Below, one piece after another: positions 1-15,633 of a stretch of 64,000 nt of DNA (within the stretch, counting starts at the first letter, position 1; the number at the start of each line of letters is the position of its first letter). This stretch comes from a virus (Duplodnaviria; Caudoviricetes). Under the pieces are notes generated by a model, which saw only the letters and a program-made list of their open reading frames with translations, was not told where the DNA came from and ran no database searches. Location: the IMG/VR virus record IMGVR_UViG_3300031853_000001, positions 116,933 to 180,932 of that record; one strand, written 5' to 3'. A program made the position numbers and the translations under genes.

Positions 1-2
1 AA

Positions 3-386: not shown

Positions 387-387
387 T

Positions 388-627: not shown

Positions 628-658
628 ATTTATACAAGGTGAGGGAACTCACCAATAA

Positions 659-1044: not shown

Positions 1045-1708
1045 ACTGGAATTTGTTGTCCAGAGTAGGCATAAATCGAGCAGCAATGCGGTAATACCCG
1101 TGCACAGGTAGCTAAATTACCCTGGCTCACCAATTATTTTAGAAGATAAGACTTGAGCTTATCTCTGGCTATGAAGCGAGTGCCGTGCCGCAGATGCGGT
1201 GCTTAGTGGAGCCTATGTGGGTTTAGCGTGTCAACCACAATGCGGATAGGTATTAACCGAAAGAAAACACGCTTTAATGGCGCTTTATCCCAAGCCTTTT
1301 CGCGGCGGCGCTATAAGTACCAAAAGGTATTATTTAATACTGAGCGTGAAACTAAGAGGGAACTGAAGGCTGTGCCAAGGTGAAAGGCTAACAGTCCGAG
1401 TGATGACCGTTGAAGCCATTCGGTGCATAGTGGTGCCGTTAAAGCGATGGATGCATACATCGTCCACTTCATTTAATGACTTGATGCTTATCAAGCTAGA
1501 ACTATCGAGGACGTGTGCGGTGGGAATGTTTGAGATTAGATGTAGATAGTTTAAGTATAGACTTGCGGTGCAAGCCTAATCAACTGGCGTTCCGCGGCCA
1601 GAATACTTTGCGGGCTTTATTGATTCGGGAGGAAGTGTCCGTAGATGAACTTCTCGGAGTAATCGCCATAATCGAATCAGCCGTGCGGCTGGCATAATGC
1701 CGCAATAT

Positions 1709-1828
1709 GGCACCGTAGTGCAAAGGTAAGCACGCCGGCCTTTGTGAGATAGGGTAAAGTGCAGTTCAACTCTGCCGTCTCGCACCACAAGCCGGTGATG
1801 CTGGGTTCAAGTCCCGCCGGTGCTTCCA
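1709..1828 (+). tRNA. tRNA-Glu(TTC) interrupted by a 44-nt tRNA-like insert (1744-1787)
   Basis: GGCACCG/CGGTGCT acceptor + T-CCA; CCGGC/GCCGG anticodon stem; removing 1744-1787 gives loop CT-TTC-AA. Confidence 0.85.
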
Positions 1829-1831
1829 AGC

Positions 1832-1918
1832 AAAGAAAAGAGAAGCATAAATCTGATCAATTTATGAGATAATGATGCCCTAACATCAAGTCTTTTCTTT
1901 AATAAATATTATTAGGGT
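1832..1918 (+). promoter_or_regulatory. three-way junction with RBS-pairing loop (RAGATH-18-like) before HNH gene
   Basis: AAAGAAAAGA/TCTTTTCTTT stem; CATAAAT/ATTTATG; TGATG-CCCTAA-CATCA loop complementary to TTAGGG at the RBS. Confidence 0.55.
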
Positions 1919-1924
1919 GATATT

Positions 1925-2566
1925 ATGAGTAGAAAATTAAGCCAACAACAATTTGAAGAAAGAGTATATAAGACATTTGGAGATAAATATTCTGTAGTAA
2001 GTGAATATTTAGGTCAAAGAAAACCTATAACTTTACATTGTAATATACACAATATTGATTTTACAGCTACTGCTGAATGTTTCATGAGACAAGCTAATGA
2101 CACTCGCTCAAGTTGTCCAGAATGTACTGCAGAAAAACGAAGACAAGAAAATAATTCTGTAAAATGTGAATGTGCTTATTGTCATAAAATTTTTTATTTG
2201 TCTCAATCTAAAGCTAATAATTCTAAAAGTGGATTACATTTTTGTTGTAGAGAACATAAAGATTTAGCTCAAAGAATAGATAGCGGTGAACAATTCGATA
2301 TAATGCGCCCGCCTCATTATAATGCAATAAAAAATGATACAGGAACAATTGGGACATATCGTATTTTAGCTTTTAGAAATTATCCCCATAAGTGCGCTGT
2401 TTGTAATTGGGACGAAGATGAAGATATATTACAAGTTCATCATATAGATGAAAATAGACAAAATAATTCTTTAACCAATTTAATTATTTTATGTCCTAAT
2501 TGTCACGCAAAAATAACTTATGGGAAATATAAATTAATTGATCGAAAACAAATTATATTAAAATAA
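1925..2566 (+). CDS. HNH endonuclease
   Basis: CAVC...VHHIDENRQNN...LCPNCH. Confidence 0.85.
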   Translation: MSRKLSQQQFEERVYKTFGDKYSVVSEYLGQRKPITLHCNIHNIDFTATAECFMRQANDTRSSCPECTAEKRRQENNSVKCECAYCHKIFYLSQSKANNSKSGLHFCCREHKDLAQRIDSGEQFDIMRPPHYNAIKNDTGTIGTYRILAFRNYPHKCAVCNWDEDEDILQVHHIDENRQNNSLTNLIILCPNCHAKITYGKYKLIDRKQIILK

Positions 2567-2579
2567 AATTAAATAGGAG

Positions 2580-2885
2580 TTGTTGTATATGGCAATCCAC
2601 GATAGAGCTTATACTCGTACAAAAAGTTGGACTAAGGCACTTCGTAAATACCACATTGATAGAGATATTTCCGCAGGTAAATGGTGGCCTATGTACAATA
2701 ATCTCCATCAATATGCTGATAATAAAATTCATTGTTCCTGTCCAATGTGTAGTGCTAAAACCAACAACAAAAAGCGCAATGGGCCTCGTGGATGGGAACC
2801 TTCAAAAAATTGGTCTATTTCAGATCAAAAGAAAATTAATAGTATGGAAAGTCAAGTTGAGGAATTAAATGATAACTTGGAATAA
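2580..2885 (+). CDS. hypothetical protein (HCSCPMC motif)
   Basis: ORF with RBS AGGAG; start may be ATG 2589. Confidence 0.6.
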   Translation: MLYMAIHDRAYTRTKSWTKALRKYHIDRDISAGKWWPMYNNLHQYADNKIHCSCPMCSAKTNNKKRNGPRGWEPSKNWSISDQKKINSMESQVEELNDNLE

Positions 2886-3063
2886 TTTTAAATGTGATTT
2901 TCCGTATCATCGTATAGATAATTTTGGCGATTATAGTGAAATGTGGTGCGGACGATTAGAAAAATATATTTCTAATTGTAATGATTGCCCATTTAACCAA
3001 AAAGAAAAAGAGATGCGTGAAGACCCCAATAATTATCAAAAATGGCTAAAATTACATAATTGA
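2869..3063 (+). CDS. hypothetical Cys-rich protein
   Basis: Overlaps upstream ORF; RBS GAGG. Confidence 0.55.
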   Translation: MITWNNFKCDFPYHRIDNFGDYSEMWCGRLEKYISNCNDCPFNQKEKEMREDPNNYQKWLKLHN

Positions 3064-3121
3064 CTTTTTCTAAAAATTATAGTATAATATATATAGTTAA
3101 GGGAAAGGAGATAAATTATTT

Positions 3122-3253
3122 ATGAATTATCTGGATGATTTTCTTGTTGGCCCGCAGAGCGATGAATATGATTGGTATTATGAAAATGAAATTCCTGATC
3201 CAGAATGGGACAGGAGATGTCGAGGATTGGATAAACTAATACTTGACAAGTAA
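3122..3253 (+). CDS. small acidic protein (43 aa)
   Basis: RBS AAAGGAG and own promoter at ~3060; below ORF-track cutoff. Confidence 0.5.
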   Translation: MNYLDDFLVGPQSDEYDWYYENEIPDPEWDRRCRGLDKLILDK

Positions 3254-3271
3254 TAAAAATTATGTTATAAT
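3243..3271 (+). promoter_or_regulatory. consensus sigmaA promoter
   Basis: TTGACA-N17-TATAAT with TG extended -10. Confidence 0.8.
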
Positions 3272-3301
3272 ATTTATAGAAACAAGGAAAGGATGATAAT
3301 T

Positions 3302-3394
3302 GTGCGCTTTACGACTCGCAAGTCTCGTACTGTGTTTTCTTCTTCTTGGAGTCGCCGCAAGCAGGCAGAGATGCTTGATGAGTGGCAGATTTAA
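3302..3394 (+). CDS. small basic peptide (30 aa, GTG start) MRFTTRKSRTVFSSSWSRRKQAEMLDEWQI
   Basis: RBS GAAAGGA behind a consensus promoter. Confidence 0.5.
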   Translation: MRFTTRKSRTVFSSSWSRRKQAEMLDEWQI

Positions 3395-3939
3395 ACGCCA
3401 GATTAGTTCAGCAAATTGCGGCCAATATTAATGGCGTTACCGCATTCCTTACTTATAGTTTGGAAGTACAAAGGTTTTGAGTAATTGAACCGGTTAAATC
3501 AATGCTTGGCGCCGGGTCCACCCTACTGGGCTCGTAAACAAATCGCGGCCAATGGTGAGAAGCGCCACCGCTATAAAGGAATGCCCCACGACGGGTTTCG
3601 TAAGTTATGTTGAAAGATATATACTAGCTTGGAATAAGCACACGCAAGAGTTGCTATAATGCGCAACAGAAAAATCCTTTATAATAGGTTAACCTACGGT
3701 CGGATGGGAGACGATAAACCCCTTTCAAGCAGTCTCTTTGGCGGTTGGACTTAAAATAAACCACCTAGGTCAGCAGGACTGATAACTATATATTATAGAA
3801 GCAATCTCTTTTATAATATATAGAAAACGCAGCCATAATCCTGTCGTTGCGGCGAACAACGATAAAAATCGCTAGTAGCCCAGATACTTACTTAAAGGGT
3901 TTTCGCCGCGTTAATCTTGGTATCGGATTGCGGTTGTAT

Positions 3940-4074
3940 CCACGCGTGGTGCAAATGGCGAGACACAGCGGACTTACGTAGGCCCAGTGGCTTGTTGGAG
4001 AGCAACACTCCTTCCTACGACCAAAATCCGCGACGCAAGATACATTGCTGGTTCAAATCCAGTCGCGTGGACCA
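3940..4074 (+). tRNA. tRNA-Leu(TAA) interrupted by a 47-nt tRNA-like insert (3977-4023)
   Basis: CCACGCG/CGCGTGG-A-CCA; GCGGA/TCCGC stem; long variable region; removing the insert gives CT-TAA-AA. Confidence 0.85.
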
Positions 4075-4077
4075 TAT

Positions 4078-4154
4078 GAGTTTGTAACCGAATTGGCATA
4101 GGTACTTGGCTCAAACCCAAGGTTTTGTGGGTTCGACTCCCACCAAACTCACCA
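4078..4154 (+). tRNA. tRNA-Leu(CAA)
   Basis: GAGTTTG/CAAACTC-A-CCA; CTTGG-CTCAAAC-CCAAG; GTGGG-TTCGACT-CCCAC. Confidence 0.9.
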
Positions 4155-4222
4155 AAATTTATATTTCGAGTGCGAATTATAATAATTTGAATTCGATGTT
4201 ATTACTTATCTAATGTAAGGAG

Positions 4223-4993
4223 GTGGTTAATATGCCACTAAAATATAAATTAGAAGAAGTATTAACAGAAAATTCTCCTGTTACTAGAAAAGTTTTAAAA
4301 GATTATTTAGCAAAATATAATGTTTTAGAATATAAATGTGCAATATGCGATAACAGAGGAGAATGGAATGGAGTTTCTTTAACATTACAAATAGACCATA
4401 TTAATGGTATAAGAGATGATAATAGAAAAGAAAATCTTCGTTGGCTATGCCCGAATTGTCATTCTCAAACTGATACTTTTACTGGGAAAAATAAAACTAA
4501 AAAAGAAGTTGTTAATTTTACAGTAGAAGAAGCTATTAAAGCATTACAACAAACTGAAAATGTAAATCAAGCAACCAAATTAATCGGCTGTGCGCAAGGT
4601 GGAGCAAATTGGATTAGAGTAAATGATATTAAAAAAAAGTATGGAATTATTCAATCTGGGGATTTAAAGAAAGAAGAAAAACAAAAGTTTAAAGAAAATC
4701 ATATTAATGCGAAACCAATTAACTCTATTAAATTATGTAAAAAATGCGGCCGTCCGTTATCGACAAAAGATGCTGAATACTGTCAAACTTGTATACACGA
4801 ATTTCAACGAAAATGTGAATGGCCTTCTCGCGAAGAACTTAAAAAATTAATTCGCTCTACACCTTTTTTACAAATAGGTAAAAAATATAATGTAAGCGAT
4901 AATGCTGTAAGAAAATGGTGCTTAAATTATGGTTTGCCATCTAAAAAGATGGAAATAAAAGCAATTTCAGATGAAGATTGGAATAATATTTGA
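4223..4993 (+). CDS. HNH endonuclease
   Basis: CAIC...LQIDHING...NLRWLCPNCHSQT. Confidence 0.9.
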   Translation: MVNMPLKYKLEEVLTENSPVTRKVLKDYLAKYNVLEYKCAICDNRGEWNGVSLTLQIDHINGIRDDNRKENLRWLCPNCHSQTDTFTGKNKTKKEVVNFTVEEAIKALQQTENVNQATKLIGCAQGGANWIRVNDIKKKYGIIQSGDLKKEEKQKFKENHINAKPINSIKLCKKCGRPLSTKDAEYCQTCIHEFQRKCEWPSREELKKLIRSTPFLQIGKKYNVSDNAVRKWCLNYGLPSKKMEIKAISDEDWNNI

Positions 4994-5044
4994 CTTTCTT
5001 TTAAAATTATAGTATAATAATTATAGTAAAGAGAAAGGATTTAT

Positions 5045-5257
5045 ATGAAAGCAAAGTGTAAATGCAGTTGTATTTGGGACTATTCTTGTAATGATATTAA
5101 AGTTGAACCTGACGGTCACGATGTTGTAGTTACTTTATATTGCCCTAATTGTGGGCATCAGCTTTTTGCTTATAGCCCTAATGACCTAATAGAAAAAGTA
5201 TCTCCTTCTTATGTTGATACTCATTGTTTTTCAAAATACACTTGGAATAATACTTGA
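5045..5257 (+). CDS. hypothetical Zn-ribbon protein
   Basis: CxC..CPNCG; promoter and RBS upstream. Confidence 0.6.
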   Translation: MKAKCKCSCIWDYSCNDIKVEPDGHDVVVTLYCPNCGHQLFAYSPNDLIEKVSPSYVDTHCFSKYTWNNT

Positions 5258-5294
5258 CTTTTAGCAGAAAATCTGCTATAATAAATATGTAAGA

Positions 5295-5365
5295 ACGACG
5301 GTAGCAGCAGTTTTAATAATAAATATTTTTAATGTAAAAATCCTTATTAGCAAAAATTCCGTCGT
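5295..5365 (+). ncRNA. stem-CAGCA cassette 1 (skipping-rope-like)
   Basis: ACGACGG/CCGTCGT closing stem, GCAGCAG, internal AT-rich hairpin. Confidence 0.5.
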
Positions 5366-5379
5366 GCTGATTGAAATTA

Positions 5380-5445
5380 AGGCGGACACAGCAAATAACT
5401 ATTTAAGCAATAATCTTTTAAATTATGTAGCTAAAATAACCGCCT
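5380..5445 (+). ncRNA. stem-ACAGCAA cassette 2 carrying a Lys(TTT) anticodon arm
   Basis: AGGCGG/CCGCCT; ACAGCAA; ATAAT-CTTTTAA-ATTAT. Confidence 0.6.
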
Positions 5446-5454
5446 AGAATTTAT

Positions 5455-5532
5455 GTGCCCGTGGCGCAACTTGGCAGACGCGCTACACTTAGGATGTAGA
5501 TTTTCAGAGTTCAAATCTCTGCGGGCGCACCA
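5455..5532 (+). tRNA. tRNA-Leu(TAG)
   Basis: GTGCCCG/CGGGCGC-A-CCA; CTACA-CTTAGGA-TGTAG; CAGAG-TTCAAAT-CTCTG. Confidence 0.9.
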
Positions 5533-5740
5533 GTCACTCCTCGCTAATGCGACAAGTCGCGTTAACATTTGTTTGTTAGCTACTGTTGGAAAACGCGACT
5601 TTAAAATACAAAGAAGCAACAGTAAATAGCTCAAACCGTATGTTGAGACTATCGTAACTATCACATTCTAGGAGTCCTGACTCGTTATTGGACTTAATAC
5701 TCAACGGAGTTGGCGCCCAAACAAATCCTAGAATGTATAT

Positions 5741-5793
5741 GGTATCAAGTGAAGAGCCTTCTCGTGGCGATACTGATTTCGACTAATCTTCAC
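5741..5793 (+). ncRNA. minimal HDV-like (theta-type) self-cleaving ribozyme
   Basis: P1 GGTATC/GATACT with G1.U wobble; P2 GTGAAGA/TCTTCAC; P3 GCC/GGC; L3 TTCTCGT; J4/2 CTAA. Confidence 0.75.
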
Positions 5794-6015
5794 AAAATAT
5801 TAAAGCGTGCTTTTCCTTGCTGTACACTTGTTGAAAAGCCAAATGTTCCCGTATGAGAATACGCAGGTTATACCTGTATATTGAAATCCCATAAGACGTC
5901 ACAAAGGAATGGATAGAAATTACAATGGGCCATTCAGAAAGTAGAACACTTTAATATTTGACTTTTTCTGAAAATTCTGGTATAATAATTACAGAAACAA
6001 GGAAAGGACAAAATA

Positions 6016-6171
6016 ATGAAGATACTTGTTGTAAATAAAGATGAGAAAATACAATTAATTCATCTCCTAAAACAAGAAATACGCAAACCTGGTTGTCCTT
6101 ATGAATTACTTACTATTTTAGAAAAACTTAGTCCTGGAGACTATGAATATCTTTTTACAACTATGAAATAA
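6016..6171 (+). CDS. small hypothetical protein (51 aa)
   Basis: Promoter at 5958-5986, RBS GAAAGGA. Confidence 0.55.
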   Translation: MKILVVNKDEKIQLIHLLKQEIRKPGCPYELLTILEKLSPGDYEYLFTTMK

Positions 6172-6194
6172 AAGAAAGGAAGTAGATACTCCAT

Positions 6195-6748
6195 TTAATA
6201 AAATGGTTGAACCAAGTGAAGAAGAGTTAACCACTCTGCTTGGGCTATCTAAATAACAGCCATACGATTTAGCGGGATACTACTAAATCGCGGCCACGAA
6301 ATCAGTAATGATTAGTGATAAGGAGAAACTCTTAATGTTAAGGATAGGCGCTTGGTTATTCGCTAACAAAAACTTGGCTCCTTGCGGCGTCGTAATAGAA
6401 AGCAGATTGAGCAGATTTGCCGAACCCAGAAAAGACTTTAAGGTGGCAGTTAAAGGGACTCTGGGAAAGCCATAAGACGTTTGGTGTCGTTGAAACCTAG
6501 AAATAGGATATAAGCAAGGTTCACAGATAAAGTAGCCTAAAACGACAATGATTCTAATAAGTAATTTAATTAGAATAATGTGCTGAATGGTTTAGGTGAA
6601 ATTTGGGAGTAATCAGTCTCCCCGTTGCTAGCCAAAAGGCAGGATGAAGAAGTTAAAGGGTCGCTACCTTTGGCTCAGCCTTCATCTTCAACGTGGTTGA
6701 ATATGTTAGAAGGATAATACAAGTACGGCGAAGGTCGCAACGGTTTTA
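6195..6748 (+). ncRNA. large structured RNA, ROOL-like
   Basis: ~550 nt ORF-free and helix-rich; the 3' part (AAAAGGCAGGATGAAG..GGGTCGCTACC..CTCAGCCTTCATC..GTGGTTGAATA..GGCGAAGGTC) resembles ROOL 3' domains as recalled; tRNA-island context. Confidence 0.5.
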
Positions 6749-6768
6749 TTAAATGGGGTATTTGCCCT

Positions 6769-6854
6769 AGACTTTAAGGTAGCATTGGAGTAATTAACCA
6801 ATGAGACAAAGATGCTCCTACATCGGCTTAAAGTTTAAAATATAATCATAGGAG
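6769..6854 (+). promoter_or_regulatory. RAGATH-18-like three-way junction/pseudoknot masking the HNH RBS
   Basis: ACTTTAAG/CTTAAAGT; CATTGG/CCAATG; GAGACAAA; GATG-CTCCTA-CATC loop complementary to RBS TAGGAG. Confidence 0.6.
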
Positions 6855-6863
6855 TGATTTAAT

Positions 6864-7424
6864 ATGCCAAGGAAAATTGATTTAACAGGAAAAATTTTTG
6901 GAATCATACAGGTAGATTCGCCAGCACCAAGTCAATCTGGTAAAACGTATTGGAATTGTCATTGTACAATTTGTAATACTAAAAAAGTAATTCAAGGTTG
7001 CGCCTTAAAAAATGGTTCTATTAAAACTTGCGGTTGTGGTTGTTCTTTTCATAAACAAAATACTTCAAAAATTTGTGAAATTTGTGGAAAAGAATTTATT
7101 CCAATAAAATTTGGCGGTGCTAGAAAATATTGTTATGAATGTTCTCCGCAAGAAGGCTCAGAAACAGATAAGCGCACAGTTATAAGACGAGCTTTAAAAA
7201 AGATGCTAGTTGATTATAAAGGTGGAAAATGTGAACGATGTGGATATAATAAATGTTTACGCGCATTAGAATTTCATCATTTAAATCCGTCTGAAAAAGA
7301 TTTTGGAATTTCTGGATGTATAACTAAAAATGTAGAAGAATTAAAAAATGAAGTTAATAAATGTATTTTAGTTTGTTCTAATTGTCACGCGGAAATTCAT
7401 GAAGAATTAGACGAGGCCCGTTAG
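6864..7424 (+). CDS. HNH endonuclease
   Basis: CERCGY..LEFHH...CILVCSNCHAEIH; stop codon lies inside tRNA-Asn. Confidence 0.85.
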   Translation: MPRKIDLTGKIFGIIQVDSPAPSQSGKTYWNCHCTICNTKKVIQGCALKNGSIKTCGCGCSFHKQNTSKICEICGKEFIPIKFGGARKYCYECSPQEGSETDKRTVIRRALKKMLVDYKGGKCERCGYNKCLRALEFHHLNPSEKDFGISGCITKNVEELKNEVNKCILVCSNCHAEIHEELDEAR

Positions 7425-7491
7425 TCCAGTTGGCAGAACGATAGACTGTTAATCTATGTCAGCGCTGGTTCAAGTCCAGCACGGGCCGCCA
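7415..7491 (+). tRNA. tRNA-Asn(GTT)
   Basis: GGCCCGT/ACGGGCC-G-CCA; ATAGA-CTGTTAA-TCTAT. Confidence 0.92.
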
Positions 7492-7771
7492 TAGTCACAT
7501 AGAGGACTTATTCTCTATGCTTGCTCAACGTCCCACTTATGTGAACGCGCGAAGTCACATAAGAGAGTCAACCCTTCCGAAGTACGAAGGAACCCCTAAA
7601 ATGGTCTGTGGGGATAAGCGGTGTCATGAACCGCCTAATGTAGCTGGCAAAGAGCATAGGTTCGTTAGGCTCCTAAGAAAAGCCTATCACCATCACGATA
7701 GCAAATAAGTGAATAAACGGATACGCGGTTAGCTGACCTTAAAGCTATTCTAATCTAGAGGAGAATAAAAT

Positions 7772-8311
7772 ATGAGTGACGTAAGACTAAAAATTTTACC
7801 TCCATGGACAGTAACAATTCGTAAGTTTGAGGCACTATTTGACGGTGACCCACAAATTGCTTGTAATTGTAATTTCTCAGGTTCTAATCCTTCTATTGTA
7901 CTAGCTTGTAATAATGGTGATAAGGTTGCTGCTCTACAGCAGATTCTTCCTTCTGAAGTTGGCTTTGGCAATATTAAGCTAAAGGTCGCGGTTGATGGTG
8001 TTCCTTCTAATCGTACTTTCAAGAGTAAGGTTGAACTATTTGACACGGCTTTCAAGGGGAATCCAGCATACGCTTATTCTGCATGTCCTGCTGAGGAAGG
8101 TTATCAGTGGATTGGGACTACTTATGTTGTATTTAATAACTGTGTAGTGCAGTTCGCGGCGGACAATCTAAATGATTGCCATGGTATTATTAGCACCCTA
8201 TATGAAACTATCGCAAGCGAACTTCTAACTGGCCCCGCTACTGATGGTGTATTTTATAATACAAATGTAGAACGTGCTGGGCTTGGTCTTTCGCTAGGAG
8301 AATGGCCATAA
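7772..8311 (+). CDS. hypothetical protein
   Basis: 179 aa, RBS GAGGAG, phage-like codon usage. Confidence 0.75.
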   Translation: MSDVRLKILPPWTVTIRKFEALFDGDPQIACNCNFSGSNPSIVLACNNGDKVAALQQILPSEVGFGNIKLKVAVDGVPSNRTFKSKVELFDTAFKGNPAYAYSACPAEEGYQWIGTTYVVFNNCVVQFAADNLNDCHGIISTLYETIASELLTGPATDGVFYNTNVERAGLGLSLGEWP

Positions 8312-8532
8312 AAGATAAGTTCACTGGGCTCTTCTAAAGTCCAGTACCAAAGCCGAATGTCACATAAAGTTAACGACGGTGCGGTATGAAAAGACCACGC
8401 TGTAGTGGCACGGGCAGAGCTAATCCGGCAAGGAAAGCGGCGGTTAAAGTGAAATCGCGACGCGGAAAGAGAAAGAATAACAACCAGTGATGGGTCGAAA
8501 GACGTCTTATCAGTTTTCTCGGTCACTTTTAT

Positions 8533-8606
8533 AGTCCGTTAGTTTAACAGTAAAATATAACCCTGTCACGGTTAAGTTACGAGGGCAGCACTCGTACGGA
8601 CTGCCA
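8533..8606 (+). tRNA. tRNA-Asp(GTC) with atypical T loop GGCAGCA
   Basis: AGTCCGT/ACGGACT-G-CCA; TAACC-CTGTCAC-GGTTA. Confidence 0.85.
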
Positions 8607-8724
8607 TAGACTCAAACAGCAATATTTTACTTGCATGTGGGGCCGGAAGTATTGGTTTAACTCCAGTTCTCTCCACCACATGGAGAGATAGTGTAACGAT
8701 AGCACGCCGTATAGTATGAGTCTA
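8607..8724 (+). ncRNA. stem-ACAGCAA cassette 3 containing a circularly permuted tRNA (GTG/His-like anticodon)
   Basis: TAGACTCA/TGAGTCTA; the 3' half (T arm, TCTCTCC-A-CCA) precedes the 5' half (GGAGAGA-TA-D arm). Confidence 0.7.
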
Positions 8725-8730
8725 GTATAT

Positions 8731-9283
8731 CGGGTTGTAGCGCAGTTTGGTAGCGCGCCTCGCTTGGGAAAAGCGATTTGTGCTTAATTATTATGTTAGA
8801 CATTACTCAACAAAAAGGAACGATTACAGAATTACGATGTATTTTAGATTTAACTAATTTGGGAATACGATGTTTAGTTCCTGTAGATGAAAGTTCTAAA
8901 TATGATGTAGTAGCAGATTTAAATGGTACTTTTATTAGAATTCAATGTAAAACAGCTTGTTGGGCTAAAGATACCGTTCAAGAAAAAGTAGCCTTTGAAA
9001 TAGATACTTGTCGAAGTACAACAAATACTAAAACTACTACTCATTATAAGTATTCTGCTAATGAAATTGATTATTTTTATACATGGTTTGAAGGACAAGG
9101 TTACTTAGTCTCCATTAAAGAAGCAAAAGGTTTAACTTTTAGATGGCGATATGAATATCCTTCTACCAATCAAAAACAAGGTATTCATATCGCAGAATTA
9201 TATAAGACTGAGGAGGTTTTAAAAGCACTCTAAAATTTTCCTGGACGAGGAGGCCGCAGGTTCAAATCCTGCCTGCCCGACCA
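8731..9283 (+). tRNA. tRNA-Pro(TGG) split by a 476-nt endonuclease-bearing insert (8767-9242)
   Basis: 5' half CGGGTTG..CCTCG-CTTG; 3' half GGA-CGAGG..GCAGG-TTCAAAT-CCTGC-CTGCCCG-A-CCA. Confidence 0.85.
8778..9233 (+). CDS. PD-(D/E)XK homing endonuclease (I-Ssp6803I-like) inside tRNA-Pro; likely start ATG 8793
   Basis: KG.ITE...KYDVVAD...IRIQCKT motif. Confidence 0.8.
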   Translation: MCLIIMLDITQQKGTITELRCILDLTNLGIRCLVPVDESSKYDVVADLNGTFIRIQCKTACWAKDTVQEKVAFEIDTCRSTTNTKTTTHYKYSANEIDYFYTWFEGQGYLVSIKEAKGLTFRWRYEYPSTNQKQGIHIAELYKTEEVLKAL

Positions 9284-9394
9284 TAATCAACTGGGTTTGA
9301 AGGTTATCCCATTTGAAAAACCTTCCCCTTTCTTTCTTGACTTTTTCTAAAAATTTTGATATAATAAATATATCAAAGGAAAGGAAATAAAAAG

Positions 9395-9622
9395 ATGGAT
9401 AAGAAAGAACTTTCTACTAATGCGGCAAAAGCAGAATTTGTAAAGTCTATTCATAATTGGCTTATGCGAACTTTAGAGCAAAACAATAAATCTGAATATA
9501 AAGATTGTTTTACTGTTGAAGGTTCTAGTATTATGTGCCAACTGCCGCAAGACTACTTTAATTCATGTAGTATTCCAGCGAACACTAAGATTGAAATGAA
9601 GTTTATTTCTAAGAAATCATAA
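9395..9622 (+). CDS. hypothetical protein
   Basis: Promoter at 9337-9365, RBS. Confidence 0.65.
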   Translation: MDKKELSTNAAKAEFVKSIHNWLMRTLEQNNKSEYKDCFTVEGSSIMCQLPQDYFNSCSIPANTKIEMKFISKKS

Positions 9623-9626
9623 CTAA

Positions 9627-9718
9627 TAAGCCTTTACTGCAATTACTTAAATGGTTAAATTATTTTGCTTGAATACAAAATGAGAGAAGGTTCGAGCCCT
9701 TCACAATTAAAAGGCTTA
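9627..9718 (+). ncRNA. stem-ACTGCAA cassette 4 with an acceptor-less tRNA body
   Basis: TAAGCCTTT/AAAGGCTTA; D-loop-like AAATGGTTAAA; ATTTTG-CTTGAATA-CAAAAT; GAAGG-TTCGAGC-CCTTC. Confidence 0.6.
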
Positions 9719-9734
9719 GCAAAGTTAGAAACTA

Positions 9735-9800
9735 AAGGCACAAGCAGCAACAAGACGTTTTAATAATTTGATAGTGGATTAAATTTATTGAGTGTGCCTT
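9735..9800 (+). ncRNA. stem-GCAGCAA cassette 5 with a GTG anticodon-like arm
   Basis: AAGGCACA/TGTGCCTT; TTTGA-TAGTGGA-TTAAA. Confidence 0.55.
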
Positions 9801-9809
9801 GATTATTAA

Positions 9810-9886
9810 GTCGGTTTAGCTTAGCTGGTTAAAGCACTCGCCTTGTAAGCGAGAGACCTTCGGTCCGAATCCGAAAACCGGCTCCA
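9810..9886 (+). tRNA. tRNA-Thr(TGT)
   Basis: GTCGGTT/AACCGGC-T-CCA; CTCGC-CTTGTAA-GCGAG. Confidence 0.9.
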
Positions 9887-9907
9887 TCTAAAAGAAGGAG
9901 TATTAAA

Positions 9908-10354
9908 ATGGGACTTTTTAATCGGTCTAAAAAAGAGCCTACAAAACAATATATTCCACCTGAGCAGCCTAAAAAATGCGAGCATAAATTTCAAGATTTT
10001 CCTTGGTATATAGAAGGAGAAGAAAATGAAGGTAATGTATATGGTTGTAACTCTTGGTATCATCTAGTAATTAAAGAACCTTATGTTTGTATTTATTGTG
10101 GCGAAAGATATGATAAAATATTGTGGGAAATAAGACGATATGGCTCTCATAAAGAAGCAATGCAGGCTCTAGATGATGTTAATGAAAAATTTAAAGACCG
10201 AATAAGACATCGCGCAGAAATTGAAGATATGATAAATGATATGCAATTAGTCGATCCTCAATATTTACAATATTATCATATGCTTCAGGGAACAAAAGAC
10301 CCATCTACTTCTCGATTATATGAGCAAGAAATTAAACCAAAATTAAAAACTTAA
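9908..10354 (+). CDS. hypothetical protein
   Basis: RBS AAGGAG, 148 aa. Confidence 0.7.
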   Translation: MGLFNRSKKEPTKQYIPPEQPKKCEHKFQDFPWYIEGEENEGNVYGCNSWYHLVIKEPYVCIYCGERYDKILWEIRRYGSHKEAMQALDDVNEKFKDRIRHRAEIEDMINDMQLVDPQYLQYYHMLQGTKDPSTSRLYEQEIKPKLKT

Positions 10355-10357
10355 TTT

Positions 10358-10476
10358 TATGCGGTCACAGCAATTTTAGATTTAATCTAAGTGTCATCGG
10401 TTCGATTCCGATTATTCCAGCCATTTAATTTGGAGTGTAGCTCAATTGGTAGAGCATTAGAATTATAAACCGCATA
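10358..10476 (+). ncRNA. stem-ACAGCAA cassette 6 containing a circularly permuted tRNA (TTT or TAT anticodon)
   Basis: TATGCGGT/ACCGCATA; 3' half 10381-10423 (ATCGG-TTCGATT-CCGAT, TATTCCA-G-CCA), then 5' half 10431-10461 (TGGAGTG-TA-GCTC-AATTGGTA-GAGC-A-TTAGA). Confidence 0.75.
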
Positions 10477-10489
10477 GTACGATATTTAA

Positions 10490-10554
10490 GACGCTTACAG
10501 CAATTTAATACAGTCGCACACATAAATAATTACATGACTAAGTAATAGAGCGTC
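10490..10554 (+). ncRNA. stem-ACAGCAA cassette 7
   Basis: GACGCT/AGCGTC; TACAGCAA. Confidence 0.55.
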
Positions 10555-10577
10555 GCGTTTTTATTTGAGGAATTAAA

Positions 10578-11012
10578 ATGAAGTTATATACATCTTATTT
10601 CGCGCAATTAAGGAATTTTCCACCAAATCTTGTTGGGCTTTCAACTGCAATTTGGAATCCCAAATGGTTGAATCCTGGCCGCGATAAAAATGGAGCAATT
10701 TGGTTAGATATTCCGCCACTTAAACCTGGGAAGGAGTGCGATGGATTATGTAATGGGAAGTGTGCTCCAAAACATCCTAATGATTGTGATTTTCTTAAAG
10801 TATATCGTAAGCAACTTGATAGGATAGATTTTAAGATGTTTATTGAACATTTAGAAACTCTTGCTAAAACTATTCAACTTGGCGAAAATTTAGACGAAGT
10901 TAATTTTGCCTTTCTTGTTTATGAAAAGTATGATAATCCTTGTAGTGAACGCGCAATAATTCAACAATGGTTTAAGGATAATGGAATGGAGATTGAAGAA
11001 TGGAAGAAATAA
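10578..11012 (+). CDS. DUF488-like protein
   Basis: MKLYTSYFA...YEK....CSER..I..W pattern. Confidence 0.55.
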   Translation: MKLYTSYFAQLRNFPPNLVGLSTAIWNPKWLNPGRDKNGAIWLDIPPLKPGKECDGLCNGKCAPKHPNDCDFLKVYRKQLDRIDFKMFIEHLETLAKTIQLGENLDEVNFAFLVYEKYDNPCSERAIIQQWFKDNGMEIEEWKK

Positions 11013-11332
11013 ATAATTATGATTGGCTTCATTATATTCCACAGGGTTGGAAAGAAATTGGCCGACAAATGATTCAAGAGTGCGAAGCAATTGACCCAAC
11101 TTACTGCATTTGCGATTTAAAAGAAAAATGGGGAACCCTTGATGTAATCGCAAATTGTGATATGACTTATTGGCGTGAAATAGATATGATTGAAAATAAG
11201 TATGAAAAATTAAGTGCAAGAACTTGTTGTTCCTGCGGCCAACCCGCTACAAAATATTCTACTGGATGGATTCTTCCTTGGTGTGATAAATGCGGCGATA
11301 TGGATGAAAAGTTTTATAAGAGGTTTGAATAA
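11000..11332 (+). CDS. hypothetical phage protein
   Basis: KEKWG.L...TC..CG...GWI...C pattern. Confidence 0.65.
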   Translation: MEEINNYDWLHYIPQGWKEIGRQMIQECEAIDPTYCICDLKEKWGTLDVIANCDMTYWREIDMIENKYEKLSARTCCSCGQPATKYSTGWILPWCDKCGDMDEKFYKRFE

Positions 11333-11428
11333 GGCGGGTTAAGCCTAATTTGGTAAGGCAGGAGATTGCTAATCTCTGAGTAATCGGTGTATACCGGTGT
11401 TTCGGTTCAAGTCCGAAACCCGTCGCCA
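11333..11428 (+). tRNA. tRNA-Ser(GCT)
   Basis: GGCGGGT/ACCCGTC-G-CCA; GGAGA-TTGCTAA-TCTCT; long variable arm. Confidence 0.9.
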
Positions 11429-11430
11429 AT

Positions 11431-11588
11431 TGTGGACTGTTGGCTTAGAAGCAGCCATTCAGCTAAGGAGTTCTTAATTTCTCTATTAGTGCGAAATGTA
11501 TTGTGGGCTACATTTGTTATAATGCCCCACGAGTATGATGTGCAAATAGGTAATAGGAATATAAGATTTGGCGTAATAGCACACCACA
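11431..11588 (+). ncRNA. mimic of 23S rRNA H43-H44 (L11-binding / GTPase-associated centre)
   Basis: TGTTGGCTTAGAAGCAGCCAT (11438-11458) and GCGTAATAGC (11571-11580), closed by TGTGG/CCACA. Confidence 0.7.
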
Positions 11589-11719
11589 AATATTGAGCTG
11601 GCCAGAGTAGCGTGCAGAAAGCTCATTAAACACGGGGTTACTACATAGACTTGCCCACGCCTCTTAACAATGCGTACCTTGGAGAGCGCGTGTTCCGCGA
11701 CGTTTAACTGCGGATTTAT

Positions 11720-11794
11720 GCGGGTGTAGTTCAACGGCTCGAATACTTGGCTTCCACCCAGGAGATGAGGTTTCGACTACCTCTACTCGCACCA
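11720..11794 (+). tRNA. tRNA-Gly(TCC)
   Basis: GCGGGTG/TACTCGC-A-CCA; CTTGG-CTTCCAC-CCAGG. Confidence 0.9.
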
Positions 11795-11797
11795 TAT

Positions 11798-11874
11798 AGG
11801 GAATTAGCGTAATGGTAGCGCCGCGGGCTTTGAACCCGTCTGTTGTAAAGGTTCGATTCCTTTATTCCCTGCCA
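11798..11874 (+). tRNA. tRNA-Gln(TTG)
   Basis: AGGGAAT/ATTCCCT-G-CCA; GCGGG-CTTTGAA-CCCGT. Confidence 0.9.
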
Positions 11875-11947
11875 ACCCAGATAGCATTAGGGTTTTCGGT
11901 GCGATAAACTTGCTATCGGTTTGCACCTGTTTTAAGGAGATTATATT

Positions 11948-12184
11948 ATGAAACGAGGAACAGATCATTCTTGGGAAGTGCGTAAATATTTAGGAGACAT
12001 AGCTTGGTATGCACATTGTAAATGTGGGTTTGAATATGCTTGCTCAAAAAGTAAAAGAAATAATGATGGGACTTGGTCCGTTGAGCAAGAAATAGATTGG
12101 CTTGCCCATTATTGCCCAAATTGTGGTGCTCGCAAGAAATGGTATAATCTTGAAATAATTAAAATAAATAAACATAAGTTCTAG
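11948..12184 (+). CDS. hypothetical Zn-ribbon protein
   Basis: CKCG..YCPNCGA; RBS AAGGAG. Confidence 0.65.
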   Translation: MKRGTDHSWEVRKYLGDIAWYAHCKCGFEYACSKSKRNNDGTWSVEQEIDWLAHYCPNCGARKKWYNLEIIKINKHKF

Positions 12185-12196
12185 GAGGTTAATCGG

Positions 12197-12511
12197 ATGA
12201 ACAAAGATATTTTAGATTTTATTAACAGGAGATTTCCTATTACCGATGAAGATAATGACAATTGGATGACAACCAATTGTTATTACTTCGCCCGCATTTT
12301 AAAAACAAGATTCAAAGGTGAAATTTGGTATGACTTGGTTGATGGTCATTTTCTCTTCCGTCGCGGCGATTACTTTTTTGATTGGACTGGGGTTAGATTA
12401 GAATATGATTTAAATAAGCCCGAAACGGTTGATAATCTAGTCAAGTGGTCTGATTATAAAAAGGTTGACCCTGTGCATTATGATAGAATTGTAAGAGATG
12501 TAATTAATTAA
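12197..12511 (+). CDS. hypothetical protein
   Basis: RBS AGGAGG; NCYYFA..L..RF...GH...DWTG. Confidence 0.7.
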   Translation: MNKDILDFINRRFPITDEDNDNWMTTNCYYFARILKTRFKGEIWYDLVDGHFLFRRGDYFFDWTGVRLEYDLNKPETVDNLVKWSDYKKVDPVHYDRIVRDVIN

Positions 12512-12525
12512 AGAGGATTAAAATT

Positions 12526-12771
12526 ATGAGTAGATTTCTAAGAAATATTAATGATTTAGACGCTTTTCGCGCGGCCGTAAGACAGTGTAAGGGAGATGTA
12601 ATTCTTCGCAGCACTGATGGGGTGGAAGAGTTTAATTTAAAGAGTAAGCTATCGGAATTTATTGCTTTGGGTAAGTTAGCAGATACTCATGGCGATGAAT
12701 ATGAAATTTTTTGTATGGATAGAGCAGATGAAGCAGTTTTATTAAAGTATTTTTATGATAGAGATCATTAA
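12526..12771 (+). CDS. HPr-fold-like small protein
   Basis: CKGDVILRS.DG..NLKS.LS pattern. Confidence 0.5.
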   Translation: MSRFLRNINDLDAFRAAVRQCKGDVILRSTDGVEEFNLKSKLSEFIALGKLADTHGDEYEIFCMDRADEAVLLKYFYDRDH

Positions 12772-12779
12772 TTAGTATA

Positions 12780-12807
12780 AAACCCGCGAAAGCGGGTTTA
12801 TTTTTTT
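12780..12807 (+). terminator. intrinsic terminator
   Basis: AAACCCGC-GAAA-GCGGGTTT followed by a T tract. Confidence 0.8.
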
Positions 12808-12825
12808 AGGTGGAGGTGGGAAAAA

Positions 12826-15633
12826 ATGAGTAAAAGTTTTAATTTTGCAAATTTTGGTAATTTATATTATTACCCAGGATTTAAACAAGATTTCTTTTAT
12901 TTTAATAGTTTACTTTCTAATTATGAAAGAAATCCACCAAATTTAGCTTATGTAAAATATGCTCAAGGAATTGGACAAACAGCTGTCTCAGAATTATCTA
13001 ATATCCCTGGAATAGGTTTGGAACAAAAAAATCAAGATGATTTTTTAATAGATCAAATTTCTCAAATCTTACAAATTCTTAATGCAGCTATTGTTCAAGA
13101 AAAAGAAAATGAAATAAAATTTGTAGATGATAAAATTGCTATGCTAAAAAATAATATAGATCCTAAATATTATAGAAAAAATCAAGATTTAGCTGCAATT
13201 GAGCATTTTTTACTTCAATTAAAAACTGAAGATGGTGAAATTAATTATGACGCTTTAATTCCATTATTAAATATTGTTGAACAAGGATTTGAAAATTCTA
13301 AAGAAATATTTAATTTTGAACAAAAACATTTAGAAGATTTAGATAATGCTGTAAAAAATAATAAACAAGCTTTAGAAAATCAAATTCGTGGGTTGTTAAA
13401 AACTGACAAATACCGTAATAAATCTGCTGAAGAACAAGAAGAAATATTAAACCGCTCTTTAAAGAAAAGAGACAAATTGAGAGTAGAATCTTATTTAAAA
13501 CAATCTCATTTAACAAATGTTCCTAGTTTTAAAAAATATATGGCAAATATGACAACAGCAGATTATAAAATTGCCAATTGGATTTCAGAACAAATTCAAA
13601 ATGTTTTAGATAATAATTACAGTACTTGGGCTACACTATTACAAAATAGCGGATTTACAAAAAATGGATATAAAACCGTCGCTGAAAATATTAAAGAAAA
13701 ACTTATTAGCTCCGTTTCTGCTTTTGCTGCAGAACATCAAGCAGAAATTCTTACTGACGGTTTAAAAACATTGGATTTAAACAGTTTTTGTAATGATTTA
13801 ATAAATGACTTTAATATAAGTCTTGGAACTAAAATTAGTAATGTACCAGATGATTTTGGATTAAAAGAAAATCATTTAAAGTTATTTGAACAAGCTATTG
13901 AAGCAAATAGTGATACTTATTATTCTGCTGAAGGAATTTATCAAGCATTAGAAGAAATAATGGGGAAAATGAAAAGAAAAAACAGTTCTTCATACTCTCC
14001 AGAAGAACAATTAATTGACGGTCTTATTGGTAAAAATACTGTAACAAATTTTTATGATGATACTATTGAGCCCATTAATAAAATTATTAAACAAATGGAG
14101 CAACTTATTGAATTAGAAAAAAATAATAAAGCTTCAATAGTTTTACAAAGAAATAATGAAACTAAAACTATTGAAGCAGCAATTACTATAGACGGTAATA
14201 CTATTACTCAAAATTTTAGTCAAGCTTTCTCTTCTGCGGGACTAAAATTATACCAAAAAAAGAATTATATTCCAGCAAGTTTATCTTCTATAGTAACTAA
14301 TATGAAAAGAGCTGCAGGAAAAAAAATACGCGATGAAATTGTAAGAATAATTACTTCAAGGCCCGCACAAGCACGAAAAGATTTACAAACTGATATGGCG
14401 CATGCTTTACAACAAATTCATGTTGAAATAAAAGGGCCAGAAGTTTCAGAAATACTTCAAGGTTTTGACAAAACTTGGTCAACAAAAATTTGGACTGGTC
14501 GAACAAATGTAAAAAATGACGTAATTGAAATTGTCGTAGGCATGCCAAATGGTCAAGAAACAAGTATGATAGTAAATAATCTTTTAGAAGGAAATATCAA
14601 TGCGATAAATAAACCTGCTTATATTAAAAAATTTTTTCAAGGCTATTCAGAAGTTTTTAAAGATTTTCAATCTCAATTTGAACAAGCAATTACTAACGAT
14701 ATGATTCAGACAAGAAATGCACAAGAATATACCGATTACGACAAAATGGCTGAAAGATTTTTTAAAACTCAAGAAATCAAAAATGAAATGATTAAAAAAA
14801 TTAATGAATTATATGGACAATATAAAGAAGAATTAACCAAACAAATAAAAGATGAAGAAAAAAGAGCAAAAAGTATTGATAATATCGAACGCGCTGCAGA
14901 AAGATTTATCCAATCTATTAGAGATACTCTTTATGTTAGTTCAACTATGAAAACTTATACAAATTATCAAAATGATCTTGGCTTTACAGGGGGTAGTTTA
15001 GGTTCTACAATAGATTCTCAAATCGAATCTTTTGACCAATTATTTACAGCTGCAGGAATGCCAATTGAAACAACACTAAAACGATGGTTAAAATTTGCTA
15101 TTTTAAACTGTTCACCAGTTAGTGTAGTCGGAGAAAAAAATAAAGATTTTATTGAAAATTATTTAGGGGGATTAGCAGTATTTTCTTTATTTAATGAAGG
15201 AGGAGCAGAGTTAACTTTATTGCACCAACAATTACAAAATCAAGAATTAATAACCACAAATAATATTATGCATCTTTATAGGTTAAATGGAATTTATTAT
15301 CCTGGCTCTTATGTTTTAAAACAAGTTGTTGAAAATTTAAATATGGTAGTTACTCAAATTAATGAAGCTCAAGCTACAGTCGCAAGAAAAAATATTATGA
15401 TTTATAACCCTGCATCTTTTGACGTTTTACCAAATGGAAAATTTTCTAATGGAAAATTTTCAAAAGGTTCAGGAAAAAATAAAATATTTAAAACACAAAA
15501 TGAAACTAACCCTTGGAGCTATGTAGGGGAAAAAATTAATAGCCAAGTCCAAATAAAAGTTCTATTTTTAGCAGGTTTATTAGATGTGGTTAAAAATTTA
15601 CATAAACAAATGGAATTTGAATTACCACAATAA
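12826..15633 (+). CDS. large hypothetical protein (935 aa, coiled-coil rich)
   Basis: Long ORF, RBS GGAGG; no recognisable motif. Confidence 0.8.
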   Translation: MSKSFNFANFGNLYYYPGFKQDFFYFNSLLSNYERNPPNLAYVKYAQGIGQTAVSELSNIPGIGLEQKNQDDFLIDQISQILQILNAAIVQEKENEIKFVDDKIAMLKNNIDPKYYRKNQDLAAIEHFLLQLKTEDGEINYDALIPLLNIVEQGFENSKEIFNFEQKHLEDLDNAVKNNKQALENQIRGLLKTDKYRNKSAEEQEEILNRSLKKRDKLRVESYLKQSHLTNVPSFKKYMANMTTADYKIANWISEQIQNVLDNNYSTWATLLQNSGFTKNGYKTVAENIKEKLISSVSAFAAEHQAEILTDGLKTLDLNSFCNDLINDFNISLGTKISNVPDDFGLKENHLKLFEQAIEANSDTYYSAEGIYQALEEIMGKMKRKNSSSYSPEEQLIDGLIGKNTVTNFYDDTIEPINKIIKQMEQLIELEKNNKASIVLQRNNETKTIEAAITIDGNTITQNFSQAFSSAGLKLYQKKNYIPASLSSIVTNMKRAAGKKIRDEIVRIITSRPAQARKDLQTDMAHALQQIHVEIKGPEVSEILQGFDKTWSTKIWTGRTNVKNDVIEIVVGMPNGQETSMIVNNLLEGNINAINKPAYIKKFFQGYSEVFKDFQSQFEQAITNDMIQTRNAQEYTDYDKMAERFFKTQEIKNEMIKKINELYGQYKEELTKQIKDEEKRAKSIDNIERAAERFIQSIRDTLYVSSTMKTYTNYQNDLGFTGGSLGSTIDSQIESFDQLFTAAGMPIETTLKRWLKFAILNCSPVSVVGEKNKDFIENYLGGLAVFSLFNEGGAELTLLHQQLQNQELITTNNIMHLYRLNGIYYPGSYVLKQVVENLNMVVTQINEAQATVARKNIMIYNPASFDVLPNGKFSNGKFSKGSGKNKIFKTQNETNPWSYVGEKINSQVQIKVLFLAGLLDVVKNLHKQMEFELPQ

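Follow-up and report, generated by a model that had tools for sequence, protein, structure and literature searches.

The window analysed here, a 64,000-nt stretch that forms the last 64 kb of the 180,932-bp virus record IMGVR_UViG_3300031853_000001 in IMG/VR (100% complete according to CheckV), belongs to a large rumen phage and encodes, inside a tRNA array, a conserved RNA that stands alone and mimics the GTPase-associated centre (GAC) of 23S rRNA. This non-coding RNA, which is present once in the record, copies helices 43 and 44 (H43 and H44) of the ribosomal domain, carries an insert between the two copies and is closed by a stem that is not rRNA. In bacterial 23S, the GAC is the uL11 and thiostrepton site, at E. 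coli positions 1051-1108. The mimic is a member of a large family of phage RNAs, nearly confined to phage DNA, whose rRNA-like halves, closing stem and insert stem are conserved together and covary. The earlier note on this DNA had proposed a non-coding RNA copying H43 and H44, and this part of its reading is supported.

Architecture of the RNA

The earlier note, which was made from the sequence alone, had placed rRNA-like blocks right after a tRNA-Ser, and every one of these blocks was found where it had been put. The parts of the RNA are listed below, with rRNA positions given, here and throughout, in E. coli numbering; the equivalents of A1067 and A1095 are 11447 and 11575, respectively.

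11333-11428, + strand: tRNA-Ser(GCU), CCA encoded (ARAGORN; Rfam tRNA model, 42.3 bits)
11430-11589, + strand: whole GAC-mimic RNA, 160 nt (closing stem, H43 copy, junction, insert, linker, H44 copy)
11430-11435, + strand: TTGTGG, 5' half of the closing stem P1 (not rRNA), pairing with 11584-11589
11436-11462, + strand: H43 copy, with a purine at 11436, aligned to positions 1094-1147 of the Rfam model LSU_rRNA_bacteria
11437-11439 with 11460-11462, + strand: lower stem of the H43 copy, CUG/CAG, then UU
11442-11444 with 11454-11456, + strand: upper stem of the H43 copy, GGC/GCC
11445-11453, + strand: 9-nt loop of the H43 copy, UUAGAAGCA
11463-11471, + strand: junction C-UAA-G (equivalent of the 1082-1086 pair), then GAGU (1087-1090), together CTAAGGAGT
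11472-11566, + strand: insert of 95 nt, a long irregular hairpin in the minimum free energy (MFE) fold, exactly between the equivalents of 1090 and 1091
11567-11570, + strand: UUUG linker from the insert to the H44 hairpin, a family signature that is absent from rRNA
11571-11583, + strand: H44 copy, with a GC/GC stem (11571-11572 with 11579-11580), the hexaloop GUAAUA (11573-11578), then ACA
11584-11589, + strand: 3' strand CCACAA of P1

P1, which occupies the place of the top of H42 in 23S, begins 2 nt past the end of tRNA-Ser, leaving a single nucleotide between them. The non-rRNA stem that had been given as TGTGG/CCACA is there, only one pair longer (TTGTGG/CCACAA). The H43 copy has an extra U at 11459, which is specific to this sub-lineage, and the A at 11581, which stands in place of the rRNA U, is able to pair with U11471.

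The 21-mer TGTTGGCTTAGAAGCAGCCAT of the H43 copy matches once in the window (11438-11458) and in none of 100 shuffles, even when three mismatches are allowed. The two blocks, with GCGTAATAGC of the H44 copy at 11571-11580, are likewise absent from all 100 shuffles at the spacing seen in the window. The proposed alignment to 23S worked for one half of the RNA: positions 1094-1147 of the Rfam model of bacterial large subunit (LSU) rRNA align to 11433-11485 (19.5 bits, E 5e-4, 431 nt searched), but the alignment stops short of the distant H44 block. No Rfam 15 family is found at 11431-11588 at the gathering threshold, and at E <= 10 only this weak LSU match appears. The H43 and H44 blocks are 112 nt apart in the window versus 14-15 nt in three true rRNA loci of IMG/VR (L080, L090 and L095), the path from 1090 to 1091 is interrupted, the flanks consist of tRNA-Ser and non-rRNA sequence, and the LSU match is confined to model positions 1094-1147, so that the remainder of domain II (H42, H45 and beyond) does not flank the copy.

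A family of phage RNAs

A 20-mer of the 5' half occurs at 110 loci in IMG/VR, and in only three of these (the rRNA loci just named) does the H44 block follow after 14-15 nt, as it does in rRNA. At 89 of the 110 loci, the pattern [AG]GCGTAnnAGC[AT]C lies 56-349 nt downstream, and in most of these 89 this 3' block is followed by the complement of the locus' own 5' flank, the stem sequences differing between loci. The 17-mer of the 3' block taken alone is found in about 460 IMG/VR stretches. In total, 149 instances were extracted, of which 108 are unique (two of these being rRNA pieces) and whose median length is 194 nt, and the 58 of the 106 unique non-rRNA instances that are no longer than 200 nt make up an alignment (A1) on which a covariance model (R1) was built. 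R1 matches 86 of the 100 3'-block loci searched (of at least 120 listed in IMG/VR) and all 80 of the 5'-block loci searched (of 110), 75 of them at 61 bits or more and one being the true rRNA L080 (42 bits). The two blocks are thus jointly conserved in relatives, which is what the earlier note had made its reading depend on. In prokaryote assemblies, the same 17-mer occurs in about 660 stretches, with a strong R1 match in 6 of the 80 loci searched (9 of 120 when counted by regular expression), while the remaining loci score 20-27 bits, which corresponds to the 17-mer itself. Among the 80 5'-block loci listed, 33 are on contigs of at least 100 kb.

The RNA in the window has all the hallmarks of this family, namely (i) an H43-like hairpin followed by N-UAA-N and GAGU (11437-11471), (ii) an insert with its own stem directly after GAGU, then UUUG and GCGUAnnAGCACA (11472-11583), (iii) an arbitrary, covarying closing stem joining both halves and (iv) a phage genome as its home, on the same strand as nearby tRNAs.

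Covariation and conserved bases

The GAC-like structure of A1 comprises 24 pairs, in which 95.5% of cells are paired (97.3% in P1) against 69.4 +/- 0.8% in shuffles. Changes on both sides are seen in 17 of the 24, and the covariation score is 0.579, compared with 0.133 for shuffles and a maximum of 0.165 after sliding the partners. Compensated pairs are found in the closing stem (8/8), in the lower part of H43 (2/3), at the 1082-1086 pair and in the insert stem (4/4). In lower H43, one pair is AU in 40 members and CG in 14, the other UA in 32, GC in 13 and AU in 8, while the 1082-1086 pair reads CG in 29, UA in 20 and AU in 2 of the 58 sequences and is unpaired in 7. The pairs of A1 that never vary are those that are invariant in rRNA.

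Conservation of single bases was scored for each half on sequences that had been found through the other half, that is, on 79 distinct 3'-found sequences for the 5' half and 59 distinct 5'-found sequences for the 3' half, the latter after removal of 5 of 80 rows (L080, which is rRNA, L024 and L026, which are partial, and L002 and L069, which are weak). In the 5' half, U1060, G1063, C1072, C1075, A1077, A1084, A1085 and GAGU (1087-1090) are present in 79/79 and G1071 in 78/79, while position 1061 is variable (48 U, 22 A, 8 G and 1 C). In the 3' half, the bases of the UUUG linker are kept in 58, 58, 55 and 54 of the 59 sequences, GCGUA (G1091 to A1095) in 58-59, the AGCAC that follows position 1097 in 57-59 and A1098 to A1101 in 58-59. 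The bases that build the tertiary fold of the ribosomal domain (1060-1088, 1071/1072 with H44, and 1082-1086) are the fixed ones.

Alongside these rRNA-like bases, the family has signatures of its own, which are the invariant GAGU, the insert, UUUG and A1101. Because these are shared even by phages of Enterobacterales (Serratia and Erwinia), whereas the true rRNA locus L095 reads GAAA at the position of GAGU, the sequences point to one lineage that would have spread among phages, not to repeated capture from hosts.

The same evidence bears on the trivial explanation that the element is no gene at all but a fragment of the host's 23S rDNA, picked up by the phage or joined to it by faulty assembly, to which we assign next to no probability. 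True 23S pieces do occur in phage records, such as the three IMG/VR loci already mentioned and one in Paenibacillus phage Pd_22F, but the mimic has non-rRNA flanks, a covarying closing stem of its own, a covarying insert and signatures common to hundreds of phages, and it is the covariation together with the family-specific signatures that excludes a stray piece of rRNA.

The insert

The insert of the window had been described in the earlier note as a structured insertion of about 100 nt, an accurate description of what is a covarying hairpin of 95 nt with the following elements.

11472-11476 with 11562-11566, 11477-11482 with 11555-11560 and 11483-11487 with 11545-11549, + strand: insert helices
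11489-11498 opposite 11534-11543, + strand: conserved irregular segment, GUGCGAAAUG opposite UAUGAUGUGC
11501-11507 with 11526-11532, + strand: apical stem containing GTGGG/CCCAC

Folding with RNAalifold of 13 close relatives that share this insert (alignment A2) gave one long irregular hairpin with compensatory changes in 16 of 49 pairs. The GTGGG/CCCAC pairing is part of this hairpin and not a pseudoknot as had been suggested, since it is a nested apical stem, four pairs of which change on both sides in the 13 relatives (CG/UA, AU/GC, UA/AU and GC/AU). In the family as a whole, the four pairs at the foot of the insert stem form in 58/58, 57/58, 52/57 and 41/57 members, and all four show double changes. 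Two other pairings were considered and set aside: (i) a knot-like alternative between AAATGTA and the loop TACATTT, which shows no covariation in A2 (its 5' strand is invariant while the loop varies) and (ii) a helix between the junction (1082-1086) and UUUG plus GC, which is drawn by both RNAalifold and the MFE fold and is unlikely because the A-U variants of the 1082-1086 pair would break both its ends and yet keep the GAC pair.

The insert is nevertheless the least conserved part of the RNA, ranging from a simple hairpin of about 25 nt (whole RNA of 91 nt) to several hundred nt (whole RNA of up to 425 nt), and because its length ranges so widely, it is the rRNA-like core that must be regarded as the constant part. 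This makes it hard to see the GAC fold as a mere structural module, that is, as a stable, nuclease-resistant scaffold or a spacer for the processing of tRNA precursors, in which the variable insert would be the functional part. The recurrence of insert sub-motifs across sub-families would suit such a scaffold, but what varies most is the part that would have to function and the core is invariant at bases of rRNA function, where a scaffold would have no need for exact rRNA loop sequences, which leaves this explanation with little credit.

The sub-motifs just mentioned are two modules that recur in inserts of different sub-families (in A1, for example, L012, L074, L134, L144, L186, L219 and L229, and also in the cultured phages pf16, Milchi and Aeromonas phage 4_4572): CACCCCGUAACUGGUAAGG near the 3' end of the insert, and GUGCGAAAUG opposite UGAUGUGC, the second of which is present in the window. 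They may be tertiary-contact or protein-binding motifs. Some members (L028, L036, L044, L050, L055, L118 and L169) have a second small hairpin in H43 (columns 31-53 of A1), where it separates the counterparts of A1077 and U1078 on the 3' side of the helix, and the core therefore tolerates expansion at two sites.

Genomic context

When the flanks (300-1500 nt) of the 106 unique instances were scanned with ARAGORN, a tRNA was found in the flanks of 65 of them, at no more than 300 nt in 59 and no more than 50 nt in 41, and all 203 of the neighbouring tRNAs are on the strand of the mimic. In the window, the tRNA-Ser that precedes the mimic is matched by two tRNAs that follow it, beyond a spacer that may be part of the same transcript. 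The neighbours, together with two known structured RNAs of the same stretch, are as follows.

1166-1277, + strand: drum RNA, 70.8 bits
6188-6756, + strand: full-length ROOL RNA, 315 bits
11590-11719, + strand: spacer of 130 nt to the next tRNA
11720-11794, + strand: tRNA-Gly(UCC) (ARAGORN; Rfam)
11798-11874, + strand: tRNA-Gln(UUG) (ARAGORN; Rfam)

No promoter or terminator appears to bound the mimic, because promoter-like sites in a consensus scan are at chance level (6 versus 7.0 +/- 2.3 in shuffles) and the terminator-like sites (4 versus 1.5 +/- 1.4 expected) lie inside tRNA-Ser (one) or on the opposite strand (three).

Positions 1-12000 of the window form a dense island of + strand non-coding RNAs with 10 tRNA-model hits, set among open reading frames (ORFs) for HNH and PD-(D/E)XK endonucleases. 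Eight of these tRNAs are called by ARAGORN, while the other two are matches to the Rfam tRNA model at 8533-8603 and at 1709-1825. The latter is 117 nt long and may contain an insert. Sub-threshold matches to YrlA, a Y-RNA-like RNA (30-32 bits versus a gathering score of 69), are seen in the window (10388-10461) and in three family loci (L034, 353-450; L053, 2574-2672; L070, 156-229), which may represent a tRNA-like module conserved in this group of phages. A hairpin resembling abiF RNA at 11650-11687 was discarded as probably due to chance (30.5 bits versus a gathering score of 37, and in none of 7 relatives at E <= 0.1).

Elsewhere, Pfam searches of 42 ORFs of the window recovered a split DNA polymerase III (PolIII) alpha subunit, gyrase, ribonucleotide reductase and many homing endonucleases, but no translation protein and no ribosomal protein. 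The two ORFs into which PolIII alpha is divided (47653-49053 and 50465-52786) flank an ORF for a LAGLIDADG endonuclease (49089-49970), a PolIII piece is 36% identical to its counterparts in phages of the Bacillus SPbeta group, and ORFs for GIY-YIG and HNH homing endonucleases are spread over the replication module.

What the mimic might do

The explanation that we favour, and to which we would give an even chance, is that the mimic is cut out of a tRNA precursor and then, free of the ribosome, binds the uL11 of the host. It would be transcribed as part of the precursor, from which the enzymes that trim the flanking tRNAs would free it, while the closing stem would protect its ends. Once freed, the mimic would fold like the rRNA domain and bind uL11, recreating away from the ribosome the uL11-RNA surface that is met by thiopeptides, EF-G, other GTPases and RelA-bound tRNA. 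The likeliest outcome would be the capture of free or exchangeable uL11, which might leave ribosomes or signalling without it. The argument for binding comes from the rRNA domain: the 58-nt fragment 1051-1108 is an autonomous unit that binds uL11 and thiostrepton on its own, so its phage copy could be expected to do likewise. Any uL11 partner must be that of the host because none of 34 carrier records (G000 and 33 whose contigs are 100 kb or longer; of the 34, 18 are at least 90% complete) encodes a uL11 C-terminal domain (PF00298) over the cut-off, against 14 of 14 control genomes.

Transcription is suggested, as a weak hint, by RNA libraries. The sequencing runs in which the stretch is found are mainly bovine and other gut samples, and four rumen RNA-library runs (assembled contigs) were compared with the window. 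Relatives that are about 90-97% alike are represented by contigs that span 11424-11648, the mimic and its insert included, with a depth of 22-30, whereas the upstream coding sequence at 11200-11280 has zero depth in all four runs, although uncovered stretches in such runs are not evidence of absence. The contigs concerned are these.

X22 record 22: 229 nt, 11426-11647, depth 29.8
X19 record 1: 11393-11648
X20 records 6-9 and X21 records 15-17: contigs over the mimic with its insert

A peak of high depth at 11438-11471 comes from true 23S of other organisms, its loose ends reading on as rRNA, and not from the mimic. One X21 contig, which joins 11584 to 11438 via a 25-nt hairpin as in a circularly permuted form, is probably an assembly chimera because a pattern scan found no IMG/VR locus in that order.

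Several points weigh against uL11 capture, or against parts of the case for it. The contigs are assemblies of relatives that do not show ends, strand or level and for which DNA may have been present in the libraries, and the R1 score of the window's RNA (125.6 bits) is not independent, as the alignment behind the model includes it. The loops that contact factors and drugs appear to be under weaker constraint than the fold, because the equivalent of A1067 (66 A, 10 G, 2 U and 1 C in 79 sequences) is less fixed than the fold-building bases, positions 1068 and 1070 vary in about 20% of the same 79, and positions 1096 (41 A, 17 G and 1 U) and 1097 (27 U, 24 C, 7 A and 1 G) vary freely among the 59 sequences of the other half. 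The base of H44 differs from rRNA by the inserted helix, the UUUG linker and the A in place of U at 1101, which uL11 might not tolerate, and the uL10 stalk base is not copied, because the closing stem is without any H42 feature. Finally, uL11 is dispensable in laboratory bacteria, which makes it less obvious what titrating it would bring.

The main rival, which we hold to be rather unlikely, is that the free copy of the GAC is a decoy substrate. It would absorb an enzyme directed at the GAC (for instance an ADP-ribosyltransferase, an RNase or a methyltransferase, belonging to a defence system or serving as a competitor's toxin) and so spare the ribosomes of the infected cell, in the way that tRNAs encoded by phages make up for, or protect, those attacked by anticodon nucleases. 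At least one toxin does act there: the Rhs toxin Tre23 ADP-ribosylates 23S H44 within nucleotides 1095-1098 and blocks the EF-G GTPase (PMC8661411). Cleavage of rRNA and tRNA by the nucleases of defence systems is also beginning to be recognised as a theme (bioRxiv 10.64898/2026.07.14.738597). The position of the gene inside tRNA arrays and the near-invariance of A1095 (58/59) and A1098 (59/59) would also fit. However, 1096 and 1097, which vary freely in the family, lie within the segment mapped as the Tre23 target, the Tre23 experiments considered here had the ribosome as substrate (PMC8661411), and our literature search found no anti-phage system aimed at the GAC. Moreover, a decoy would need to outnumber tens of thousands of ribosomes, and the occurrence of the family in phages of very different hosts would call for an equally widespread attacker.

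Less likely than the decoy, as is the pure scaffold discussed above, is a sponge for translation factors or a sensor blocker, that is, an RNA that by itself or with uL11 would bind a GTPase of the translation cycle, RelA or deacylated tRNA at its elbow and would thus directly damp GTPase cycling or (p)ppGpp synthesis. Both factor-meeting loops are kept (UUAGAAGCA is the commonest form of the first, and GUA..A is present in 58-59 of 59 for the second), and an effect on the stringent response would suit phages that flood the cell with tRNAs. Ribosome-bound factors, though, additionally need the sarcin-ricin loop and the stalk, whereas no other rRNA-like piece (such as the sarcin-ricin loop) is found in positions 1-13000 of the window at E <= 1, and none of the key bases is less fixed than A1067, which together make this a decidedly improbable role.

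Taking uL11 capture and its rivals together, a broader generalisation can be put forward only tentatively, as something that we would at present sooner doubt than believe: phages of many bacterial phyla might make a free copy of the GAC from their tRNA transcripts and so capture host uL11 or another partner that docks on this surface, imposing a relaxed state blind to uncharged tRNA, or shield ribosomes from GAC-directed toxins. Should it be true, RNAs that imitate rRNA domains would make up a new class among those that viruses use for take-over or counter-defence.

Cultured carriers and significance

Unannotated copies of the mimic are present in eight cultured phages, which were identified by permissive blastn followed by R1; a blastn search of a 601-nt region against GenBank phages gave matches to tRNAs only, and the cultured carriers surfaced at an E limit of 10.

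Pseudomonas phage Milchi: R1 109 bits, 9 nt upstream of tRNA-Met
Pseudomonas phage pf16: KU873925, about 29189-29379, R1 100.9 bits, between tRNA-Asn and tRNA-Pro
Further carriers: Aeromonas phage 4_4572; Xanthomonas phages XacN1 and XbC2; Erwinia phages Kaldavass and pEa_SNUABM_12; Serratia phage BF

Since these eight have laboratory hosts, the function of the mimic is open to direct test. Paenibacillus phage Pd_22F (L357, MZ092003.1, about 83,900-84,060) was rejected as a carrier, its match being a genuine 23S piece; this 23S stretch lies near the genome end in an unannotated region and is host DNA or an assembly artefact.

To our knowledge, rRNA mimicry was known only from short cis-acting leaders of ribosomal protein operons, whereas here hundreds of phages maintain a whole ribosomal functional centre, on which uL11, thiopeptides, EF-G and RelA-bound tRNA land, as a gene in its own right, under constraints that are those on the ribosome itself. 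As far as Rfam 15 (no model of the family) and our literature search (no phage copy of the GAC described) show, the family has not been described before. The text of Weinberg et al. 2017 does not contain '23S', 'L11', 'GTPase' or 'rRNA', that of Fremin et al. 2023 has no rRNA-like candidates (and the family motifs are absent from the six of its supplementary files that were searched), and there is nothing on insertions in 23S H44 in PMC2441807. If the mimic does bind uL11 or a GAC-directed factor, this would (i) be a new viral way to manipulate or protect translation, (ii) perhaps partly explain why phages keep tRNA islands and (iii) provide a natural, compact and self-folding RNA that binds uL11 and thiopeptides and has a tolerated insertion site.

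Comparison with known systems

The closest relative of the mimic is its model, the bacterial GAC (top of H42, H43 and H44), with which it has in common H43 with its 9-nt loop, the UAA junction with the 1082-1086 pair, GAGU, the GC/GC stem of H44 and the GUAAnA loop, and in which the same bases vary and covary. It differs in that it stands alone with an arbitrary stem for H42, has a variable domain plus UUUG inserted at 1090/1091 and an A at 1101, and is encoded by phages beside tRNAs, outside any rRNA operon.

RNAs outside the ribosome that reproduce the rRNA site of a ribosomal protein are otherwise found in the leaders of ribosomal protein genes (L20, S15 and S4), and the text describing them mentions no L11 leader (PMC7247131). 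These are cis-acting 5' leaders of ribosomal protein operons that copy a few nucleotides, whereas the mimic copies a whole domain and is not placed like an autoregulatory leader, with no ribosomal protein gene among the 42 ORFs of the window searched with Pfam and no PF00298 in the 34 carrier records.

Among phage RNAs, the species 1 and 2 RNAs of T4 (rnaC and rnaD) are likewise small stable RNAs at the end of a tRNA cluster and on the strand of the tRNAs, but they are not members of the family, as R1, run with filters off, reaches no more than 9.0 bits anywhere in the 10-kb tRNA region of T4, and their sequence contains no GAC blocks. ROOL, GOLLD and drum are structured RNAs too, and ROOL and drum even lie in the same tRNA-rich stretch, but they have no likeness in sequence or structure to the mimic or to rRNA; ROOL and GOLLD form RNA-only assemblies (bioRxiv 10.1101/2024.12.08.627333).

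The last group consists of decoy or sponge RNAs, to which the mimic would be akin, as a non-coding RNA capturing a host protein by imitating its ligand, only if the proposed uL11 binding is right. This group includes 6S RNA, CsrB and EBER1 of Epstein-Barr virus, which binds ribosomal protein L22. RNA mimicry by a phage is documented as well, in the pseudo-ToxI that imitates ToxI (PMC3475682). None of these decoys, however, imitates a functional centre of the ribosome, which the mimic reproduces as an entire domain.

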